This document shows, in pieces, positions 3,952 through 25,267 of a stretch of 32,000 nucleotides of DNA. The stretch lies in the NCBI GenBank assembly GCA_016432445.1, contig CP066689.1:360001-392000 (forward strand), written 5' to 3'. Position 1 is the stretch's first letter. Each line of letters starts with the position of its first letter. The DNA comes from Candidatus Saccharimonadota bacterium (GTDB taxonomy: Bacteria; Patescibacteriota; Microgenomatia; UBA1406; GWC2-37-13). The translations under genes were made by a program, and so were the position numbers. The notes under the pieces are model-generated. The model was not told the DNA's origin. It did no database searches and saw nothing but the letters and a program-made list of their open reading frames with translations.

Positions 3952-6900
3952 ATGGGAAAGGAAAATGAAGAAATTATAGCATCAGCTAATCAAAGAGCTG
4001 GATTAAACGAACCGCAAGAATTACCTGTCCTAGGATCAAACGCTAAAGCTTTGATTGAAAAAATCATAACTCTTAATCCAAAAAACCCTGATTATCCTTT
4101 TTCTCAACCTTTTGACAAGCATTATGCAGGAATGGTCTCAGATGATCCTGGAGTTTATGCACGTAAATATACTCTTGCAAGAGCACTTATTGCAGATGGA
4201 AGATATGGGAATATAAGATTTCTCGATACTGCTTTTATTCCTCAAGGAGAAGAAGTTCCTCCTCAAGTACAGGCTTTAAAAGATGATCTTCATGTGAGAG
4301 TAAGGGAAGAACTATTGAAAAGAGGAGATAAAAAAGTAACGGCAGAAGTGGAAGAAGATATGAGAAATTTTACTCAAGAAGTAGATGAGGGTAAAACACT
4401 TGACGCTCAAGAGTTTAGAAAACTTGTGCATCTTTTTGGAGGTTCCCGTGTTGTTGATATTCTCTATCGGACTCGGCCGGAATTTCGAGGAATGCCAGTT
4501 GAAAAAGTGAAAAGCATTATTGCTGATTTTTTGGGTGATTTCTTAGTTAAAAAAGGCGGTTTTAATCCTGACGATATTGAGGTTGGAATAAAATATTTAT
4601 CAGAGGCAACATTTCAGGAAGGATTGTATGAAACAATAAAAGATAATTGCCTTCAATTTTATAACTTCCAAAAAAAAGCAGGTTCGGCAGAATCAGATAG
4701 AGAATTAACTAATGAATATTTTGATATTGCCGATATGGAAATACAAGGTTTTAAGAACCCTCATCTGGATCAGATTTTACAAAGAGCAAGGCAATATTAT
4801 ACGTCACTTTACGAAGACTTGCCTAAACCACCTCAAATTATTGGCGAGCTTAAAGAAGGAAGATCTTTTCCTGACTTGAATCAGCTTATTAATATGAAGG
4901 AAGTGGTAGATAAAAGAAGAGTTGCTATTGCTGATGACATGGGACTTGGTAAAAGTGCTTCAATGATACTGACAAAAGAAATGCTACATCTTAAATGTGC
5001 TTTGGTTGCAGCACCAGCTAATGTTATTTCAACTTGGCAACGTTATTTATCTGATCAAAAAGTAGATGGTAAACAGATGGGATATTTTAAAGAAGGGATG
5101 GCTCCCAAAGTAGTTATTATTGATAATCCTTTAGCTTTACATGAATCTGATTTTTCTCAAGCTGATTATGTTCTGATTTCTCATGAACGATTAAATGATT
5201 CTTATACCCCAGTTTTAGAGCAAGTGCCTTTTGAAATGGTAATTGTTGATGAGGTACATAAACTAAAAAATCTACAAAAAGGAGTAAGAGCAGGTAATTT
5301 AATTAAAATTGCGCAAGCCGCAGAAAGACGTAATGCCTACTTAGGAATTTTATCAGGAACACCAGTCCCAAATAAAATTCAGGACGTCGCTATGATATTA
5401 AAATTGCTATATCCGGAAAGATTTGGTGAAGCTTCTAACAAAGATCTTGTTAAAAAAATCATTAATGGAGATCTTCTAGATTTGAGAAGTTTACTTATAC
5501 CACGAATGCAGATGAAAGGTAAAGAAAGTCTTAATTTGCCTGAACTTACACAAGATGTTATTAAAGTTGATATGTCTCCTGAAGAAAAAGAAGTGTATGA
5601 GGTACTTATGGAAAATGACGAAATGGAAGCAACGGAAAAAATTCAGGTGTTGAGACAGTTTTTAATGAATCCAAAGCTTCTTGATATGACTCCGAATATG
5701 GAAGGCTCAAAAATTAAAGCAGTAGGTCAACATCTTAATAATGTTTTTCAAAATAAAAATAAAGTAGTAATGTTTGTTAATGGTTACGTTCAAGGAATAA
5801 TAAGAGGCGATAAGGAAAAAATAATTTTAGGCAGAATGGGTTTACCTGATGATGTTGAGATAAAAGTAATTCATGGTGAAGATATGGGAAATATCGAACG
5901 TGAAAGAATACAATCTGAATTTAATAACTCTGATAAAAAAATACTACTTGTTGTCAGCGGACAGACTGCTGATGTTGGAATTGATTTATCAGGAGGAGAA
6001 GAAGTTGTTTTCTACAATGAACCTTGGTCACTTTATGATAAACAACAACAGTTGGCAAGAGTGCATAGAGAGGGCGTAAAACATCCTGTTAGAAGTATGA
6101 CATTTATAACTAATGGAACAATTGAAGATGGAATAAGCATATATATCCAAATGAAGCAAAATGCAATAGAAAAACTTCTTAGAGGGATAGAACTATCCAA
6201 GATGGACAAAGAGTTACTTGAAAAAGATGAGAAAGTTGAGGGTTCAAACCTAGAGGTTAATCGAGAACTTGCCGATTATTATTTTTCATCATTAGATAGG
6301 ATGATGAAAATTTTTGGCCACGTTAGAGAATTAGGTGAGGAAGCATTCATAAAATTTTTGGAAAGATATGGTGAGGATTATGCAGAGTGCTATAGCGATT
6401 TGGGTAGCCGAAACTATCAATCAAATGCTTGCCGGATAAACGGAACTATTATTGCTGAGATGATTGAGAAACATGGTCAAGATCTAGTAGGCTTGAGGAT
6501 ACTTGATATTGCGTCAGGACCTGAAATGTTAAGAAAACACATTACAGATAAATATCAAGATAGAATAATAAGCCTTGATATTAATGCTTTGCATTTTAAA
6601 GGTGAAGGAGGAAACAGAATTGTGGGGAGTTTTACTGCTTTGCCGGTTGAGAGTGGTTCTATCGATTATGCTAATCTCTCTTTAGCTTTACATTATTCAA
6701 GGTTTGTACCAAGTAAAGGAGAATATGAAAGATTAAAGGTTTTGGCTGAGATGAATAGAGTTTTAAAGATTGGAGGTAAAACAGTTCTTAATCTCATGTA
6801 TAATGCAGATCTAAAAAGTTTTGAAAAGTTTAAGACAATTGTCGAAGCACTTGGTTTTAAAATTGATGAAGAATATACGGATAATGTTATAGTAGGTACA

Positions 6901-7293
6901 CAATATCAGTCACGAATTATTACATTAGAAAAGATTCAAGATATAGATCCAGATATTAATGTGGTTATTAGTAACATAGATAAAGAAGCTTATGATGGAT
7001 TAAAAATGCCAAAAGGAAGTTGCGGGTTAAAAAATCCCCGCAAGATTGTAAGAGCATTTGTGGTAAATGGAGTAAATCATCCAGTTAAATTCAATGATAG
7101 CGATCAGGCTGTTTTGGAAGAAGAAACAACCATAATGACAGAAGGAGAACAGCTAAGAAATATGTACGGCGGGGTTAAATATATCCCAAGAGATGATATA
7201 ATCCAAAATGGATATGCTCGTGTTCTTATAGCTAATAAATACGTTTTGTTTAAAAAACTTCAGAATAACAATGGGGTTGTTATTATAAGATAA
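3952..7293 (+). CDS. SNF2-family ATPase/helicase fused to a C-terminal class I SAM-dependent methyltransferase domain
   Basis: SNF2 motifs are DDMGLGKS (nt 4933-4956), DEVH (5248-5259), LSGTPVPNK and QLARVHREG (6049-6075). The methyltransferase fold shows ILDIASGPE (6502-6525), IISLDIN, GSIDYANLSLALHY and LKIGGKTVLNL. About 310 aa at the N-terminus and about 150 aa at the C-terminus are unassigned. Confidence 0.85.
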   Translation: MGKENEEIIASANQRAGLNEPQELPVLGSNAKALIEKIITLNPKNPDYPFSQPFDKHYAGMVSDDPGVYARKYTLARALIADGRYGNIRFLDTAFIPQGEEVPPQVQALKDDLHVRVREELLKRGDKKVTAEVEEDMRNFTQEVDEGKTLDAQEFRKLVHLFGGSRVVDILYRTRPEFRGMPVEKVKSIIADFLGDFLVKKGGFNPDDIEVGIKYLSEATFQEGLYETIKDNCLQFYNFQKKAGSAESDRELTNEYFDIADMEIQGFKNPHLDQILQRARQYYTSLYEDLPKPPQIIGELKEGRSFPDLNQLINMKEVVDKRRVAIADDMGLGKSASMILTKEMLHLKCALVAAPANVISTWQRYLSDQKVDGKQMGYFKEGMAPKVVIIDNPLALHESDFSQADYVLISHERLNDSYTPVLEQVPFEMVIVDEVHKLKNLQKGVRAGNLIKIAQAAERRNAYLGILSGTPVPNKIQDVAMILKLLYPERFGEASNKDLVKKIINGDLLDLRSLLIPRMQMKGKESLNLPELTQDVIKVDMSPEEKEVYEVLMENDEMEATEKIQVLRQFLMNPKLLDMTPNMEGSKIKAVGQHLNNVFQNKNKVVMFVNGYVQGIIRGDKEKIILGRMGLPDDVEIKVIHGEDMGNIERERIQSEFNNSDKKILLVVSGQTADVGIDLSGGEEVVFYNEPWSLYDKQQQLARVHREGVKHPVRSMTFITNGTIEDGISIYIQMKQNAIEKLLRGIELSKMDKELLEKDEKVEGSNLEVNRELADYYFSSLDRMMKIFGHVRELGEEAFIKFLERYGEDYAECYSDLGSRNYQSNACRINGTIIAEMIEKHGQDLVGLRILDIASGPEMLRKHITDKYQDRIISLDINALHFKGEGGNRIVGSFTALPVESGSIDYANLSLALHYSRFVPSKGEYERLKVLAEMNRVLKIGGKTVLNLMYNADLKSFEKFKTIVEALGFKIDEEYTDNVIVGTQYQSRIITLEKIQDIDPDINVVISNIDKEAYDGLKMPKGSCGLKNPRKIVRAFVVNGVNHPVKFNDSDQAVLEEETTIMTEGEQLRNMYGGVKYIPRDDIIQNGYARVLIANKYVLFKKLQNNNGVVIIR

Positions 7294-12190: not shown

Positions 12191-12232
12191 AGTTATGGGT
12201 GATGAGTTTTGGGTTGTGGGTTGAACTCAGAA
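12191..12232. repeat. GGGTT-type degenerate repeat (half site) overlapping the rfbB stop
   Basis: agttatgggtgatgagttttgggttgtgggttgaactcagaac belongs to the same family as 23209-23272, 24778-24860 and 25268-25300. Confidence 0.6.
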
Positions 12233-13203
12233 CGATATTTAATTTTCTGCCACCACTCTTGATTATCTTTATACCATTCAATAGTTTTATTCAAATATTC
12301 ATCAAAGCTGTATTTTGGCTGCCAGCCAAATTCCTGTTTCATGCGTGACCAGTCTATAGCATAGCGGCGGTCATGTCCTGGTCTGTCTTTAACAGTCTCC
12401 ATCATCTCTTCATCTTTTCCCATAATCTTTAAGATTTTTTTAATGACCTCAATGTTAGGGATATCTTCGGTCAGTCCGCCGATAAGATATGTCTCGCCGA
12501 CTTTTCCTTTTTGCAAAATGACATCAATGGCTTCGCAGTGATCTTCAACATAAAGCCAGTCACGGACATAAAGGCCATCACCATAAACCGGCACTTTTTT
12601 TCCTTCCAAAAGATTTGTGATTGCCAAAGGAATCAGTTTTTCAGGAAATTGGTAAGGACCGTAATTGTTGGAACAGTTGGAAATTGTCATTGGCAGTCCG
12701 TAAGTTTCCGCATAAGCTCGGACTAAAAAATCAGATCCCGCTTTTGATGCTGAGTAGGGACTGCGGGGGTTGTAGGGCGTTTTATCATTAAATTTTTCGG
12801 TTGTATTTAAAGGCAAAGCTCCAAAAACTTCATCGGTTGATACATGATGAAATCTTTTGACCTTGTTTTGCAAAGCGGCGTTAAGAAGAACGCCTGTGCC
12901 TTCAACATTAGTTTTAATAAAAGGAGCCGGGTCAAGAATCGAGCGGTCAACATGCGATTCAGCTGCAAAATGAACGACTGTGTCTACGCCCTTCATCAGT
13001 TCATTCATCTTTTCTCTATCACAAATATCGGCATGTTCAAAAGAATAATTAGAGTTTCCTTCAATACTTTTAAGATTTTCCAAGTTGCCGGCGTAGGTGA
13101 GTTTGTCAACATTCACAATCTGGTCCTGGGGATATTTTTTTAACCAATATAAAACGAAGTTAGACCCAATAAATCCCGCCCCACCCGTAACAATCAGTTT
13201 CAT
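12193..13203 (-). CDS. rfbB: dTDP-glucose 4,6-dehydratase
   Basis: LIVTGGAGFIGSNF, the YSASKAGSD catalytic YxxxK and HVSTDEVFG are present. The length is 336 aa. Confidence 0.9.
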   Translation of the reverse strand: MKLIVTGGAGFIGSNFVLYWLKKYPQDQIVNVDKLTYAGNLENLKSIEGNSNYSFEHADICDREKMNELMKGVDTVVHFAAESHVDRSILDPAPFIKTNVEGTGVLLNAALQNKVKRFHHVSTDEVFGALPLNTTEKFNDKTPYNPRSPYSASKAGSDFLVRAYAETYGLPMTISNCSNNYGPYQFPEKLIPLAITNLLEGKKVPVYGDGLYVRDWLYVEDHCEAIDVILQKGKVGETYLIGGLTEDIPNIEVIKKILKIMGKDEEMMETVKDRPGHDRRYAIDWSRMKQEFGWQPKYSFDEYLNKTIEWYKDNQEWWQKIKYRSEFNPQPKTHHP

Positions 13204-13343: not shown

Positions 13344-13859
13344 TTAAGCTTCTTTTACAATTTCTAACGGCTTTTTTGGATAATCACCTTTTATTATATC
13401 CGGAAGATACTGAGACAGTAGAGTAGGAAATATTGTTTCTTTACTGTTTGTAATTTGGTTAAGAGAAAACCATGCAAGCTCTTTAACTACTCCGATTTCT
13501 TCTTCAGTCAAGTTGGTGATAGAAACATCTTTCTTTTTCGTCCTTGCCACAATATACTTTTCCTTAATATGAGTTGGTTTGCCATACAATATAAGATCTA
13601 GTTCTCCAGTCCAAACAACCGGCCCCAATTCAATATCTTTTTCACTCAATCCTGTTTCTTCAGCTAATTCCCGGATTGCAGTTTTTTCAATATCTTCCCC
13701 GTTTTCTATTTCTCCGCCGGCAAGTGTCCAAAACCGGCCTTTGTATTCTTCACCAATCTGTTTTGTCCGGGGATCATCAATGCACATTAAAAGCAGTTCA
13801 TTCTGATCATTTAAAAGAATAATTCTGACACTATTTCGTATTGGGTAATTGAGATTCAT
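13344..13859 (-). CDS. NUDIX hydrolase
   Basis: The Nudix box GGEIENGEDIEKTAIRELAEETGL is present. The track ORF extends to a TTG at 13910; the first ATG (MNLNYPIRN...) is at 13859. Confidence 0.8.
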   Translation of the reverse strand: MNLNYPIRNSVRIILLNDQNELLLMCIDDPRTKQIGEEYKGRFWTLAGGEIENGEDIEKTAIRELAEETGLSEKDIELGPVVWTGELDLILYGKPTHIKEKYIVARTKKKDVSITNLTEEEIGVVKELAWFSLNQITNSKETIFPTLLSQYLPDIIKGDYPKKPLEIVKEA

Positions 13860-13910
13860 AGCTTTACCTATTATATCAGGAGGACAGCTTGGTGTAGCAA
13901 AGTTATTCAA

Positions 13911-13929
13911 CCCCGTACGTGGATTGAGT
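13911..13929 (+). repeat. 19-bp perfect direct repeat, copy 1 (CCCCGTACGTGGATTGAGT)
   Basis: It is identical to 14500-14518. The two copies bracket the GNAT gene plus miaB-tail relic C. Confidence 0.9.
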
Positions 13930-13962
13930 CTAAGGTGGAAATGATGTTTATACAGAACATTT

Positions 13963-13971
13963 TGCTATACT
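13963..13971 (+). promoter_or_regulatory. extended -10 promoter of the GNAT gene, leaderless configuration
   Basis: TGcTATACT at 13963-13971 is followed by 6 nt and then the ATG at 13978. Confidence 0.45.
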
Positions 13972-13977
13972 TTTTTC

Positions 13978-14436
13978 ATGAACATTACGTTGGTTCCTAT
14001 TGGACTACAAGAAAAAGAACACTTAAACAATTTGCTCATTAAATATAAAAAGGAACTTACTGGTAATCTTGGTAGATATAAATATCTGGATAGTTATTTT
14101 GAAGAAAAAGATCGCTATCCTTTTTTTATAAAAGTAGATGGTAATGTGGCAGGGTTTGTACTAGTCAATAATTACTCAATTGTAGCGAAGGGTGCTAAAA
14201 GCATTGGCGAGTTTTTTGTAGAACAGAAATATAGAAAACAAGGAGTAGGAAAGGAAGCTGCAAAAAAAGTATTTGATTTATTTCCAGGAAAATGGGAAAT
14301 AAGACAGCTACATTCAAATCCTCAAGGACAAATATTTTGGAGAAAAGTAATTAAGGAGTATATCGATGATAACTATCAAGAAGTAATGCTTAACAATGAG
14401 AAATGGCATGGAACAGCTCAGATATTTAAAACGTAA
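13978..14436 (+). CDS. GNAT-family N-acetyltransferase
   Basis: FFVEQKYRKQGVGKEAAKKVF carries the Q/RxxGxG/A acetyl-CoA binding motif. The length is 152 aa. Confidence 0.75.
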   Translation: MNITLVPIGLQEKEHLNNLLIKYKKELTGNLGRYKYLDSYFEEKDRYPFFIKVDGNVAGFVLVNNYSIVAKGAKSIGEFFVEQKYRKQGVGKEAAKKVFDLFPGKWEIRQLHSNPQGQIFWRKVIKEYIDDNYQEVMLNNEKWHGTAQIFKT

Positions 14437-14495
14437 TTACTTATTGAAGTGGGGTTTGAAGATGAGGTGGTCGAGTTTGACAATCGTTTTTTTCT
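14437..14495 (-). pseudogene. relic copy C of the miaB 3' terminus
   Basis: The minus strand reads (R)QKKTIVKLDHLIFKPHFNK*, compared with the live miaB tail KKKRWLKLDSLIFKPIRNQK*. It shares GGTTTGAAGATGAGG and the TTACTT...CGTTTTTTCT ends with 15319-15380. Confidence 0.7.
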
Positions 14496-14499
14496 GGCG

Positions 14500-14518
14500 C
14501 CCCGTACGTGGATTGAGT
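14500..14518 (+). repeat. 19-bp perfect direct repeat, copy 2 (CCCCGTACGTGGATTGAGT)
   Basis: It is identical to 13911-13929. Confidence 0.9.
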
Positions 14519-14520
14519 TT

Positions 14521-14571
14521 GCCTGCCGGTCTTCGACTCCGAGGTTGCTCAGACTCGAGGAGCAGGCAGGG
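14521..14571. repeat. GC-rich hairpin element (CCTGCC...GGCAGG stem), same family as the insert in the helicase gene
   Basis: The central GTCTTCGACtCcgAGGttGCTCAGACtCGA aligns with the reverse complement of 26844-26890 (GTCTTCGACcCtaAGGggGCTCAGACcCGA). Confidence 0.7.
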
Positions 14572-14630
14572 CTAAATTAGAATTGATGTTGGAGAACACT
14601 TCCAATTTACGGCTAAATAACCTACGCGGT

Positions 14631-14650
14631 TGACAATTATTGACAATTAT
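14631..14650 (+). repeat. tandem duplication TGACAATTAT x2
   Basis: It can be read directly, and it creates two TTGACA-like hexamers. Confidence 0.6.
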
Positions 14651-14652
14651 TT

Positions 14653-14708
14653 TCAATATTTCTTTGGTTTGTAGATGAGATTGTCCAGGCGGAGCCAGCG
14701 TTTTTTCT
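14653..14708 (-). pseudogene. relic copy A of the miaB 3' terminus
   Basis: The minus strand reads *KKRWLRLDNLIYKPKKY*, compared with the live tail KKKRWLKLDSLIFKPIRNQK*. The GCCAGCGTTTTTTCT end is identical to 15366-15380. Confidence 0.7.
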
Positions 14709-14731
14709 AAATTTGCAGATTATCCTATAGT

Positions 14732-14760
14732 TTGATTTATCTATTCATTCTTGCTATAAT
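14732..14760 (+). promoter_or_regulatory. sigma70-type promoter, leaderless configuration
   Basis: TTGATT (14732-14737), a 17-nt spacer, TATAAT (14755-14760), then 6 nt to the ATG at 14767. The geometry is the same as at 1209-1244. Confidence 0.55.
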
Positions 14761-14766
14761 TCCGCC

Positions 14767-15318
14767 ATGTCAGAAAATCCTCAAAGAGGTTCCGAAAATA
14801 GAGTTCGTGGAATTATCGCTTCTTCGATAGTACTATGGTATAAAGAAAATCCTGTTGAACTTGAAGATGCAGCTGAAGTAATGATGCTTTCATCAGGAAA
14901 TCAATTACTTTTAGGTAGAATAACGAAATTGGCTGAAGCTGTTAGAACAAAACAAGGAAAAGAAGTAGGAGATTTCTTTATGAGAGGTGTCGCAGTGTCT
15001 TTTTTATATGAAATTGAAGTTGCAGAAGAGTTTCATGAACAGATAAAAATTGTTACAAAAGAAGATATTGAGAGGGTGCAAAAAGAAAGACAAGAACGTC
15101 GCAGGCAACGTACAATTGATTCAGAGTTTTATGTAGGTAAAGATTTTGAGTTAAAAAGAATTCAACAGATAAAAGGAGAAGGGGATAAGCTTGATAAGCC
15201 TTTTTTTGGCGCAGTTTCAATGATTTTAAATCTACTTAAAGATCAGAAAGTTTCAGACCCGCAATGGATGTCTTTTCTAAATGGCGTGTTAATAACTAGT
15301 CAACTTCTAAGAAAATAG
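14767..15318 (+). CDS. hypothetical protein (183 aa), no recognised domain
   Basis: The ORF has its own promoter. Its stop codon (15316-15318) directly abuts the complement of the miaB stop (15319-15321). Confidence 0.65.
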   Translation: MSENPQRGSENRVRGIIASSIVLWYKENPVELEDAAEVMMLSSGNQLLLGRITKLAEAVRTKQGKEVGDFFMRGVAVSFLYEIEVAEEFHEQIKIVTKEDIERVQKERQERRRQRTIDSEFYVGKDFELKRIQQIKGEGDKLDKPFFGAVSMILNLLKDQKVSDPQWMSFLNGVLITSQLLRK

Positions 15319-16527
15319 TTACTTTTGATTTCTGATTGGTTTGAAGATGAGGCTATCTAATTTCAGCCAGCGTTTTTTCTTCACAGCAGGTGGGACATCA
15401 TCTATTAGATTTTTAGTGGCGGCGGTTTGGGGACGGGGAGAATAGCGGGCAACATAGGCTTTTTCAAAACCGACTTTTTTGCAAAGTTTATAGGTATTCT
15501 CAAATTCTTCATCAGTTTCTCCGCAGAAGCCGACTATGATGTCGGTTGTGAATTTGACATTTGAAATTTGATCTTTGATCTTAGATATTAGATCAAGATA
15601 CTCTTTGGTGGTGTACCAGCGGTTCATGCGTTTTAAAACTTCATCATCTCCTGATTGGATAGGCAGGTGAATTGTTCTTGTGATGTTGGGGTATTTAGCA
15701 ATAACACCAATAAGTTCATCAGAAAAATCCCATGGGTTAGAAGACATAAAGTCAACTTTTTCAAAACCCATTTTGGCAACTTCTTCTAAAAGGTGAGGGA
15801 AAAGAGTGGGGATACGGTGTTTGCCAAGATGCTTAACATAGACAGGTTTAAAATCTTTAACTTCGCTCGATACCGCGTTTTTCACTCCGTGGGAGCCCTT
15901 CCCTTTTCGGTTAATCGGGTTCCCTCCCAAGTCGTTCAAAACGGGTATCTTCGCTCCGTTTAATAAGAGATCTGATCCGTAGGAGTTCACGTTTTGCCCC
16001 AGGAGGGTTACCATTCGGTAACCTCTTTTTTTTAGTTCAAGGCACTCGTTAATAATATCTTTGTATGGCCGGCTGACTTCTTTTCCCCGGGAAAAAGGCA
16101 CGACACAATAAGTGCAAAAGTTATTACAGCCATTGGAAATAACTACAAAACCTGTATTGGGGTCGGTTTGAACTGCTGGATTATCAAAGCCAACTTCTTC
16201 AATGGGCATAAATTCATCGACTTCCGGCATGCGTTCTTTTAGTTTCTGTAAATATTTTCCGGTGGTATCTCTTGCTGCTATCCCAACCATACAGCCGGTG
16301 ACAATTATTTTAAGAGACCGTTTTTTTTTAATTTTATTTAAGTTTATTACCATTCCATAGACCCGGTCTTCAGCTGACCGGCGGACCATGCAAGTATTAA
16401 TAATCACATAATCGGCCTCTTTAATTGATGAAGCTTTAGTCATCCCGCGGGCTTGAAAAGCATTTTCAATCCGGCCCGAGTCAGTTAAGTTTTGCTGACA
16501 CCCAAAGGTTTTGATGAAGTATTTCAT
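15319..16527 (-). CDS. miaB: MiaB-like radical-SAM methylthiotransferase, apparently lacking the C-terminal TRAM domain
   Basis: The N-terminal FIKTFGCQQN carries the UPF0004 Cys, and CNNFCTYCVVP is the CxxxCxxC radical-SAM motif. The protein ends about 20 aa after DDVPPAVKKKRW, where homologues continue into TRAM. An ATGA overlap joins it to the upstream GT4 gene. Confidence 0.8.
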   Translation of the reverse strand: MKYFIKTFGCQQNLTDSGRIENAFQARGMTKASSIKEADYVIINTCMVRRSAEDRVYGMVINLNKIKKKRSLKIIVTGCMVGIAARDTTGKYLQKLKERMPEVDEFMPIEEVGFDNPAVQTDPNTGFVVISNGCNNFCTYCVVPFSRGKEVSRPYKDIINECLELKKRGYRMVTLLGQNVNSYGSDLLLNGAKIPVLNDLGGNPINRKGKGSHGVKNAVSSEVKDFKPVYVKHLGKHRIPTLFPHLLEEVAKMGFEKVDFMSSNPWDFSDELIGVIAKYPNITRTIHLPIQSGDDEVLKRMNRWYTTKEYLDLISKIKDQISNVKFTTDIIVGFCGETDEEFENTYKLCKKVGFEKAYVARYSPRPQTAATKNLIDDVPPAVKKKRWLKLDSLIFKPIRNQK

Positions 16528-20519: not shown

Positions 20520-20549
20520 TTGACACTTTTGACATACATGTGTTAAGAT
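20520..20549 (+). promoter_or_regulatory. promoter of the TA operon
   Basis: TTGACA (20520-20525), an 18-nt spacer, the extended -10 TGtTAAGAT (20541-20549), then 8 nt to the ATG at 20558. Confidence 0.45.
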
Positions 20550-20557
20550 TTATTTAT

Positions 20558-20845
20558 ATGACAAACTTTATTTCTCCCCGCGATTTGCAAAGAAGTTCAA
20601 AAAAAATTCTAGAGGAGGTTAATAAAACCAAAAAACCAGCGATTATCCTAAGCAAGAAAAAGCCGGTAGGGGTGATTATTACTTATAAATTTTTTGAAAA
20701 AATGACTAGTCAGTCTAGGCTCGAAAAAGTATTTGCGGAAGCGTTAAAAGAGTCTAAATCAGGCAAAACAAAGGTAATTGATACTCCAGAAAAACTCAAG
20801 AAAGATTTAGAAGAATTAGAAAAGTATATTAATGATAAAGATTGA
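20558..20845 (+). CDS. Phd/YefM-family type II antitoxin
   Basis: SPRDLQRSSKKILEEVNKTKKPAIILSKKKPVGVIITYKFFEKM fits the Phd/YefM N-terminal fold pattern. The track start at 20540 is a GTG inside the promoter; the ATG is at 20558. The gene overlaps the toxin gene by 14 nt. Confidence 0.7.
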   Translation: MTNFISPRDLQRSSKKILEEVNKTKKPAIILSKKKPVGVIITYKFFEKMTSQSRLEKVFAEALKESKSGKTKVIDTPEKLKKDLEELEKYINDKD

Positions 20846-24777: not shown

Positions 24778-24860
24778 GTTATGAGTTATGGGTTGTGGGT
24801 TCTGGGTTCTGGGTTCCAAACATTATATAGTTATGGGCTCTGGGTTGTGGGTTTTGAGTA
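24778..24860. repeat. GGGTT-type degenerate repeats (left arm of the four-helix-bundle cassette)
   Basis: gttatgagttatgggttgtgggttctgggttctgggtt is followed by gttatgggctctgggttgtgggttttgagta. The second block encodes the C-terminal tail KTHNPEPITI of the 4HB protein. Confidence 0.7.
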
Positions 24861-25200
24861 GGGATTTTTTGAGATTGGCGATCATTCTGCTTAAGCTACT
24901 GCAGCTGCTATAAAGTATTTCATATTGTATTTGATTTATATATTTTCTTTTAAGTGATATTGAGATAATTGCTACACATTCAAAACATGATCCCTTTGAT
25001 AAATCAAGAAAGTGATTGAAATCTTTTCTTGTACGACTTGTTCCTTCGGCAATATTCAAAGCTATTGATACGGCTGCACGTCTGAATTGGGATGTAATTC
25101 CAAACATTTCATTATCTGGAAAAGAATTTGTAAATGAATAAACTTTATTTATAAATGTTAATGCTTCTTGATAAACTCTTAATTTTTCAAAAGTAAACAT
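24823..25200 (-). CDS. four-helix-bundle protein (23S rRNA intervening-sequence protein family)
   Basis: MFTFEKLRVYQEAL...ITSQFRRAAVSIALNIAEGTSR...FLDLSKGSCFECV is the characteristic pattern of this family. The track start at 25209 is a GTG; the ATG is at 25200. Confidence 0.85.
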   Translation of the reverse strand: MFTFEKLRVYQEALTFINKVYSFTNSFPDNEMFGITSQFRRAAVSIALNIAEGTSRTRKDFNHFLDLSKGSCFECVAIISISLKRKYINQIQYEILYSSCSSLSRMIANLKKSLLKTHNPEPITI

Positions 25201-25267
25201 ATCAAACACTTTACTTTTCTATGTATTCTATTTCTATAGAATATAAACAACAAAGTTGAGTATTTTA

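Follow-up and report, generated by a model that had tools for sequence, protein, structure and literature searches.

Orphan miaB 3' ends in a Candidatus Roizmanbacteria genome as probable scars of serial gene-end displacement

This analysis concerns a 32-kb stretch of contig CP066689.1 (hereafter the window, meaning the whole stretch of DNA that was analysed), taken from the 1.1-Mb metagenome-assembled genome of Candidatus Roizmanbacteria, an uncultivated groundwater bacterium of the Candidate Phyla Radiation (CPR)/Patescibacteria, and within it the region behind a gene of the MiaB/RimO family, here called miaB. The window is AT-rich (GC content 35%). Downstream of the intact gene, the last codons of miaB recur twice on the same strand as orphan ends, and we refer to the working end as tail 1 and to the orphans as tails 2 and 3. 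Reading away from miaB, the tails are separated by a convergent gene for an all-helical protein (orf183) and by a non-coding spacer, and the third is followed by a convergent gene for a GNAT acetyltransferase; a NUDIX hydrolase gene and rmlB lie beyond (Table 1). For comparison we used 80 genome loci and 80 metagenome loci of relatives (160 in all, MiaB identity 58-69%; single loci are denoted by L and a number) together with the 120 best MiaB homologs out of 5.8 billion proteins. No MiaB relative above 70% identity was found in the genome collection, the metagenome collection or the 5.8-billion-protein search.

Table 1. Features of the miaB-rmlB region, in window coordinates
Feature	Position	Strand	Basis or remark
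rmlB, dTDP-glucose 4,6-dehydratase-like; conserved right border of the variable gap	12193-13203	-	Pfam
NUDIX hydrolase, 171 aa, within the variable miaB-rmlB gap	13344-13859	-	Pfam
DR19b, second copy of CCCCGTACGTGGATTGAGT, just upstream of the NUDIX gene	13911-13929	.	
GNAT acetyltransferase, 152 aa, convergent cargo gene	13978-14436	+	Pfam PF00583
Tail 3, decayed orphan miaB 3' end (QKKTIVKLDHLIFKPHFNK, then stop)	14437-14496	-	
DR19a, exact 19-nt direct repeat CCCCGTACGTGGATTGAGT	14500-14518	.	
Non-coding spacer with GC-rich imperfect hairpin (14519-14575)	14519-14646	.	
Tail 2, orphan miaB 3' end (stop, KKRWLRLDNLIYKPKKY, stop, K, stop)	14647-14708	-	in-frame TAG precedes
Promoter-like site of orf183, TTGATT-17-TATAAT with upstream TG	14732-14760	+	consensus match
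orf183, convergent cargo gene, all-helical protein	14767-15318	+	ORF (open reading frame)
Tail 1, working miaB 3' end, last 20 codons and stop (KKKRWLKLDSLIFKPIRNQK, then stop)	15319-15380	-	
miaB, MiaB/RimO-family radical-SAM methylthiotransferase, 402 aa	15319-16527	-	Pfam UPF0004 and Radical_SAM, without TRAM

The miaB product scored 332.7 against NCBIfam TIGR00089, over the cut-off of 251, and 328.8 against the MiaB equivalog TIGR01574, under the cut-off of 355.3, the latter match ending at profile position 366 of 437. The TRAM RNA-binding domain is lacking in all Roizmanbacteria MiaB-family proteins examined, that is, the one in the window and the 120 best homologs, for which PF00919 and PF04055 are the only domains recorded and which have lengths of about 380-440 aa. 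The protein of the window, a candidate true MiaB, stops a few residues past the linker helix.

When the last 15 miaB residues ahead of the short terminal extension (KKKRWLKLDSLIFKP) were scanned against the window in six frames with BLOSUM62, two further copies were recovered downstream on the same strand, tail 2 scoring 62 and tail 3 scoring 48, with the next best match at 25. In 200 shuffled windows the best match averaged 25.8 and never exceeded 36. The string GGTTTGAAGATGAGG occurs in the window twice exactly and once with two mismatches, in the tails only. Chance similarity of the tails is rejected by these shuffled-window scores and string counts, and the three copies reported in an earlier note on this DNA, made from the letters alone, were found where that note had placed them. 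The parts that match KKKRWLKLDSLIFKP lie at 14665-14709 in tail 2 (KKRWLRLDNLIYKP, preceded by a stop) and at 14452-14496 in tail 3 (QKKTIVKLDHLIFKP). Tail 2 can be aligned without gaps to tail 1 over 62 nt (73% identity), down to a common TAA at 14647-14649, and the two share 16 identical nucleotides (AGAAAAAACGCTGGCT) at their upstream edge. The boundary common to all three copies was confirmed with one correction: tails 1 and 2 both carry CGTTTTTTCT, and in tail 3 one more T is present (CGTTTTTTTCT, T7 versus T6). Among the other genes of the window none had an orphan end, and only paralogous Rossmann N-termini came up.

As the note had also described, the two cargo genes run against miaB and stop directly at a tail, orf183 ending at 15318 next to the miaB stop at 15319 and the GNAT gene ending at 14436 next to the stop of tail 3 at 14437, and each has a promoter-like motif of its own. 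The motif of orf183 stops 6 nt ahead of the ATG, which suggests a leaderless transcript, and the promoter-like TGCTATACT of the GNAT gene, which was read from the sequence and is absent from the promoter-scan listing, has the same 6-nt geometry. In genes of this lineage a TGnTATA(A/C)T motif often stands exactly 6 nt ahead of the ATG, for instance at the GNAT gene (13963-13980), at orf183 (14752-14769) and at an orphan miaB head of the related locus L098 described below (L098:68-88), suggesting that leaderless transcripts are common in Roizmanbacteria.

The cargo itself looks like ordinary accessory genes. The orf183 product was without a Pfam, NCBIfam or significant PADLOC match, and only eight homologs, all distant (25-33% identity), were found among 1.84 billion representatives; its AlphaFold model (predicted local distance difference test score 88) has eight helices and gave no fold match in the PDB at E<0.35. 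The GNAT protein has homologs of 45-58% identity in other Microgenomates, in unrelated contexts, and the one orf183 homolog examined of the eight is not near miaB; the idea that either gene travels elsewhere as a miaB-linked cassette was accordingly dropped. No defence-system signature was found for either gene. Their GC content is 31-34%, as against about 40% in the flanking core genes, a difference that is not decisive. In viral contigs no match was found to GNAT, to orf183 or to a 19-nt repeat described below, and a phage origin was rejected on these grounds.

No gene stands behind tail 2, where there are instead about 150 nt of spacer containing a hairpin. The hairpin, GC-rich within a genome of 35% GC, has a fold z-score of -3.5 on the minus strand, and neither it nor the spacer has a second copy in the window or in any fetched locus. 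The spacer may once have been the intergenic sequence that followed miaB in one allele. The GNAT gene and tail 3 together are bracketed by an exact 19-nt direct repeat that is absent from the earlier note; 0 of 100 shuffles gave even one such match, and no further copy of the 19-mer was found in the window, the other fetched loci or the viral contigs. Hairpin, spacer and 19-mer were rejected as a repeated element, as no copy was found in the other fetched loci. The idea that the tails, hairpin or 19-mer derive from a structured RNA or a piece of tRNA was rejected as well, since no tRNA or tmRNA was found there and Rfam gave no match at the gathering or at a relaxed threshold.

The way in which the tails have diverged bears on their origin. 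Between tails 1 and 2, 10 of 42 nt differ, yet 11 of 14 residues are identical and the remainder conservative; a Lys, for instance, is replaced by Arg through three nucleotide changes, and one Leu carries two synonymous changes. When the same number of substitutions was placed at random, the observed protein similarity was reached with p=5e-5, and the corresponding test for tail 1 against tail 3 gave p=1e-3. Since this divergence was constrained by the protein, the tails must have diverged as working gene ends in different lineages; judged from their sequences, the comparison shows them to be alleles from different lineages and not local duplicates. In tail 3 an extra A in the A-run and a compensating 1-nt deletion have removed an Arg-Trp pair that is retained by nearly all related tails examined, and we therefore regard tail 3 as a decaying pseudo-end; it is the farthest copy and probably the oldest layer. 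The motif LD.LI[FY]KP is common to all three tails and was found in none of the 120 best MiaB homologs and in none of the 160 related loci, which argues that the donors were close relatives belonging to one otherwise unsampled clade.

These data also speak to another alternative, namely that the miaB end was duplicated in tandem on the spot and then drifted, or that alleles from co-existing strains were joined into a chimera during assembly. Slippage can give direct repeats near a gene end, and the window does derive from a metagenome-assembled genome; but protein-constrained divergence is not expected of silent local copies, and unrelated genes lie between the copies. The window is moreover matched at 100% identity in independent assemblies, by a 6.3-kb Logan contig of six samples and by shorter contigs from other samples, and the arrangement is identical in all Logan contigs of the SRR121133xx-4xx samples, which represent one population. 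These contigs were presumably built with k=31, and a false graph join is excluded because the repeats in common are only 16-19 nt long, below any assembler k-mer and too short at k of at least 21. We consider this explanation extremely improbable. Several independent Logan contigs of this population end inside the hairpin (14533, 14557, 14562), and further contig ends fall near 13861-13887; the latter look like coverage breaks rather than structural variants, and those within the hairpin could be a coverage drop or a variant.

The position of the tails within a conserved neighbourhood was evident from the related loci. Across Roizmanbacteria the order orf101-GT4-miaB-gap-rmlB-rmlD-UDP-glucose dehydrogenase is kept, and in the 104 of 160 loci in which both miaB and rmlB are present the gap between them ranges from 19 nt to 5.3 kb. 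None of orf183, GNAT and the NUDIX gene of the window was found at any of the 80 genome loci tested (NUDIX by tblastn, E<=1e-5); the gap genes of relatives instead encode inositol monophosphatase, M1 peptidase, alanine racemase, PD-(D/E)XK nucleases, ParE, MazG and nucleotidyltransferases. In 51 of the 58 relatives with gap genes the first of these is convergent with miaB, and its 3' end mostly overlaps the miaB 3' end by a few nucleotides. The miaB-rmlB site is thus a hot spot across this phylum-level group. The lack of a recombinase gene remarked on in the earlier note was borne out, neither Phage_integrase nor any other recombinase domain being detected in an ORF of at least 100 aa in the window, and no integrase, transposase or resolvase was found among 98 distinct ORFs (at least 70 aa) from the miaB-rmlB gaps longer than 400 nt of 68 relatives.

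Further orphans came to light in other lineages when every locus was scanned with the miaB tail belonging to it. In L145 an orphan tail of about 21 codons lies 0.5 kb downstream, behind a single nucleotidyltransferase gene, and matches the real tails of L176 and L142 at 83-85% identity as compared with 78% for its own. In a hot-spring clade (L101, L105, L108, L109 and L110) a 150-nt orphan beginning at codon 350 lies behind two convergent cargo genes and carries frameshifts and stops, hence is decaying too. The L109 orphan shares 91-92% identity with the real miaB end of L112 as against only 84% with L109's own end, and the same CRISPR (clustered regularly interspaced short palindromic repeats) array stands behind the intact tail of L112 and behind the L109 orphan; taken together, these two observations indicate that L112 shows the undisrupted state. 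Gene starts were affected as well: L052 has an orphan miaB head of 40 codons (2774-2893) upstream of the intact gene, with a 3.1-kb insert between them that contains HEPN/MNT, an HNH protein and an FkbM methyltransferase, and in L098 an orphan head of 10 codons (86-115) with its own -10 box is separated from the intact gene by about 70 nt with a GC-rich hairpin.

The array of the hot-spring clade deserves a separate remark. It consists of a 25-nt repeat (GCCTTTTAGTTCCTAACTTTCGGCG) and unique spacers of 18-19 nt, with about 47-50 units in L108, and is located at L109:10510-10899, L108:10625-12785, L110:5340-5750 and L112:1866-2450, directly behind the orphan miaB tail in L108, L109 and L110 and directly behind the real tail in L112. 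Short-spacer CasY/Cas12d arrays are known from hot-spring Roizmanbacteria (PMC6509639), with spacers of 17-19 nt (10.1101/2023.12.12.571249), and the arrays of L108, L109, L110 and L112 match this type, to which they may be assigned as candidates.

The boundaries of the orphans differ among the lineages: codon 384 in the window (twice), about 381-383 in L145 and codon 350 in the L109 clade. Relative to the A-runs of the intact gene, the junction lies in the window at -60 at an A6 run, twice, and in the L109 clade at -150 at an A5 run; the L145 junction is less precise, near an A8 run at -78. Only 3-7% of positions in each gene qualify as the start of a run of at least five A, which gives the chance expectation per event.

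According to these results, we favour, as moderately probable, a reading in which the miaB 3' end was displaced serially through general recombination, independent of any recombinase, with DNA of diverged relatives that belong to the same unsampled Roizmanbacteria clade. The insertion history proposed in the earlier note, in which units entered repeatedly at the miaB 3' end and each brought a replacement tail, is supported by the protein-constrained divergence of the tails, by the absence of the cargo from related loci and by the better match of other lineages' orphans to foreign real tails. The att-site or integron-like mechanism that it had attached to this history is not: boundaries vary by lineage, orphan heads exist, the tails are not attC-like, no integrase was found in the window or in the 98 gap ORFs, and no unit polymorphism was seen in the sampled population. 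As the boundaries differ, both gene ends have been hit and no recombinase was found, general recombination is preferred over a dedicated att site.

In the favoured displacement scheme, miaB would serve as the homology anchor for an incoming fragment comprising part of miaB, the tail belonging to it and a convergent, self-promoted cargo gene. Each imported neighbour would carry a miaB tail because the 3' end of the convergent gene abuts or overlaps that of miaB. On one side the fragment would recombine with the resident miaB, and on the other the join would be illegitimate and would fall at the A6 run that lies 60 nt ahead of the stop. The tail already present would be kept, pushed downstream as a silent orphan and left to decay. 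The location of the junctions at poly-A runs favours microhomology-type joins and, post hoc, would account for the common boundary of tails 2 and 3 without a site-specific enzyme. The route might be homology-facilitated illegitimate recombination after DNA uptake, as proposed for the orphan immunity arrays of type VI secretion systems (T6SS; PMC5361080), or, along the lines of the Rhs model, a small circle might be inserted by one crossover; the enzymes are conjectural in either case. Natural competence has been demonstrated in CPR Saccharibacteria (PMC10187176, PMC10633639), the only CPR members for which it has been shown experimentally (PMC10187176), and in Roizmanbacteria DNA uptake by competence would be needed for the illegitimate-recombination route.

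At least two such events would be recorded in the window, in an order that we chose as the most parsimonious. A first layer would have consisted of miaB, tail 3, GNAT, the 19-mer and NUDIX; an import from a relative without GNAT would then have brought tail 2 with the gene-less spacer, hairpin and 19-mer; and a later import would have added tail 1 and orf183, the newest and functional layer. Conversely, the orphans may have come on donor fragments anchored on the rmlB side, the assignment of the orphans to recipient or donor being conjectural likewise.

Several observations weigh against serial displacement by general recombination. The exact 19-nt repeat around GNAT and tail 3 has unrelated flanks on both sides, like a crossover core, and its 19/19 identity is unexpected beside tails that are only 65% identical. 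A perfect 16-nt block is shared by tails 1 and 2 exactly at the boundary, and the same nucleotide was used twice, as expected of a site-specific enzyme, while the poly-A account was framed after the fact. No parent sequence above 70% identity was found in the collections searched, and the junction microhomology and the left crossover point are accordingly putative. Finally, no presence/absence polymorphism of single units was seen in the Logan contigs of the one sampled population.

The repeats and the common start nucleotide can be read as traces of site-specific cassette capture, in which a recombinase whose gene lies elsewhere in the genome would insert small integrase-less circular units (tail, gene and promoter) and thereby regenerate the gene end, the target being an att core within the miaB tail (AGAAAAAACG...), the 19-nt repeat or both; the insertion point would lie between AG and AAAAAACG in the tail or at the 19-nt repeat. 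Both orphans begin at the same nucleotide, the orf183 unit (672 bp) lies between copies of a perfect 16-nt repeat and the GNAT unit (589 bp) between those of the perfect 19-nt repeat, the unrelated flanks at both repeats correspond to a BOP'/POB' pattern, and each of the two units is one gene with its own promoter. Newly arrived tycheposons likewise push older elements outward and leave partial copies of the target gene (10.1101/2020.12.28.424599). The 16-mer at the orf183 unit is also conserved coding sequence (KKKRWL), and tail 3 is without it. Against cassette capture, a recombinase was found neither in the 32 kb nor in the gaps of 68 relatives, other lineages' orphans begin at other codons and include heads, the tail motif and the 19-mer have no further copies in the window or 170 loci, relatives of GNAT and orf183 elsewhere are not beside miaB, the middle unit has no gene, and the tails have no hairpin symmetry. 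We regard cassette capture as unlikely, and as highly doubtful the more specific proposition that CPR bacteria possess a cassette system whose recombinase acts in trans and uses the miaB tail, perhaps together with the 19-mer, for attachment. If true, it would amount to an integron-like platform for gene capture in the 3' end of a housekeeping gene, with self-promoted single-gene cassettes carrying replacement ends. Loss of the orf183 unit would give a fusion of miaB with tail 2 reading …GTGAAGAAAAAACGCTGGCTCCGCCTGGAC, loss of the GNAT unit would give the hairpin and the 19-mer followed by TTGAATAAC, and an excised orf183 circle would carry the junction of …CTGCAAATTT with AGAAAAAACGCTGGCTGAAATTAG.

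The 19-nt repeat also invites a mixed history, in which only the orf183 layer arose by tail displacement and the GNAT unit (13930-14518, with tail 3 hitch-hiking) was inserted separately into an intergenic 19-mer downstream of an old miaB terminator, either by single crossover of a small circle over the 19 nt or by a target-duplicating element not yet known. Removal of one repeat copy and the 570 nt between leaves a plausible ancestor (miaB, tail 2, spacer, hairpin, 19-mer, NUDIX), the repeat is exact where the tails are 65% identical, and excised circles re-inserting by single crossover are invoked in the Rhs model (PMC2935791). Nineteen nucleotides are, on the other hand, very short for RecA-type recombination, the identical start nucleotide of tails 2 and 3 is left unexplained, and no further copy of the 19-mer was found in the window, the fetched loci or the viral contigs. 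We consider such a history quite unlikely.

Some observations from the surroundings are recorded here for completeness. Accessory-looking genes are present elsewhere in the window at 204-1132, 3952-7293, 20540-20845 and 24823-25209; they encode a DUF6922/AbiEii toxin-antitoxin pair, an SNF2 helicase of 1113 aa with a fused methyltransferase domain, a Phd/YefM antitoxin and a '23S rRNA intervening sequence protein'. In two relatives rmlB is split at about residue 123, at the same position, by an insert of about 1 kb (L035:7295-9367 and L070:4450-6291), which could be an intron, an intein or a mobile element.

Overall, the arrangement behind miaB is best classed as scars of 3'-end displacement at a hot spot of recombination. 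Footprints of this kind are known, and what is new is the setting, a housekeeping gene of a CPR bacterium, with tips of equivalent function and the neighbouring gene as payload. Only if a recombinase were found would it count as a new molecular system. On the displacement reading, a process so far described for polymorphic-toxin loci would be extended to a common housekeeping gene. In the tiny genomes of CPR/Patescibacteria few mobile elements can be recognised, and their gain of accessory genes is poorly documented; here, Roizmanbacteria would repeatedly have acquired small accessory genes of diverged relatives next to a conserved gene, by a process that apparently needs no dedicated recombinase and leaves datable 'ghost alleles' of lineages never sampled. 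The signature, an orphan gene end that matches the real end of another lineage and is joined at a homopolymer run, could be screened for across whole genomes and would map gene flow among uncultivated bacteria. A word of caution is that such scars mimic att sites and cassette arrays.

Some integrative elements restore the 3' end of the gene that they target and accumulate one behind another; tycheposons do so at tRNA genes (10.1101/2020.12.28.424599). SCC elements, which insert at rlmH, are of the same kind. They resemble the present arrangement in that successive units have fragments of the target gene's 3' end between them, the newest unit adjoins the intact gene, and cargo-only units without a recombinase exist. 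A dedicated tyrosine or serine recombinase and a fixed att core are part of both systems, whereas in the present case no recombinase was detected, the boundaries differ from lineage to lineage and orphans are present on the 5' side too. Integron arrays similarly stack small single-gene units at one site, the newest nearest the entry, but the window is without intI, attI and Pc, and its repeats are coding gene ends without an inverted-repeat partner and not attC hairpins; the only strong hairpin (14519-14575) occurs once, unlike the repeated attC. The cargo genes here have their own promoter motifs and are convergent with the anchor miaB, whereas integron cassettes are mostly promoterless and co-oriented with Pc.

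Closer parallels are offered by two systems that work without an integrase, and the models published for them would yield precisely such an architecture. In the T6SS orphan immunity arrays of Vibrio cholerae (Kirchberger et al. 2017, PMC5361080), imports are likewise anchored in a conserved upstream gene and joined illegitimately at the far end, and older modules stay downstream as an array; the authors themselves remark on the resemblance to integrons and on the lack of an integrase. Selection keeps the orphan immunity genes there, whereas the orphan miaB tails are non-functional and decaying, and natural transformation is established in Vibrio but only surmised for Roizmanbacteria. C-terminal displacement has been described at rhs loci and also for CdiA and MafB (Jackson et al. 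2009, PMC2935791), and according to the Rhs model a circle with a core fragment, a new tip and the intervening genes is integrated by a single crossover that shunts the old tip downstream (PMC2935791). As in the window, an intact gene is followed by a same-strand string of orphan 3' fragments that keep a short conserved sequence, the new end comes laterally together with a downstream gene, the old ends are shunted downstream and silenced, and no integrase is involved, homologous recombination being proposed, possibly with small circles and with related donors only. At rhs loci the displaced tip, a polymorphic toxin domain paired with an immunity gene, is itself the payload, and one tip is unrelated to another. 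No toxin or immunity signal was detected for GNAT or orf183 by Pfam, NCBIfam, PADLOC or PDB fold comparison. In the CPR host described here, as opposed to an enterobacterium, the tips are equivalent 15-20-codon ends of a housekeeping tRNA-modification gene, and the payload is the unrelated convergent neighbour, GNAT or orf183.

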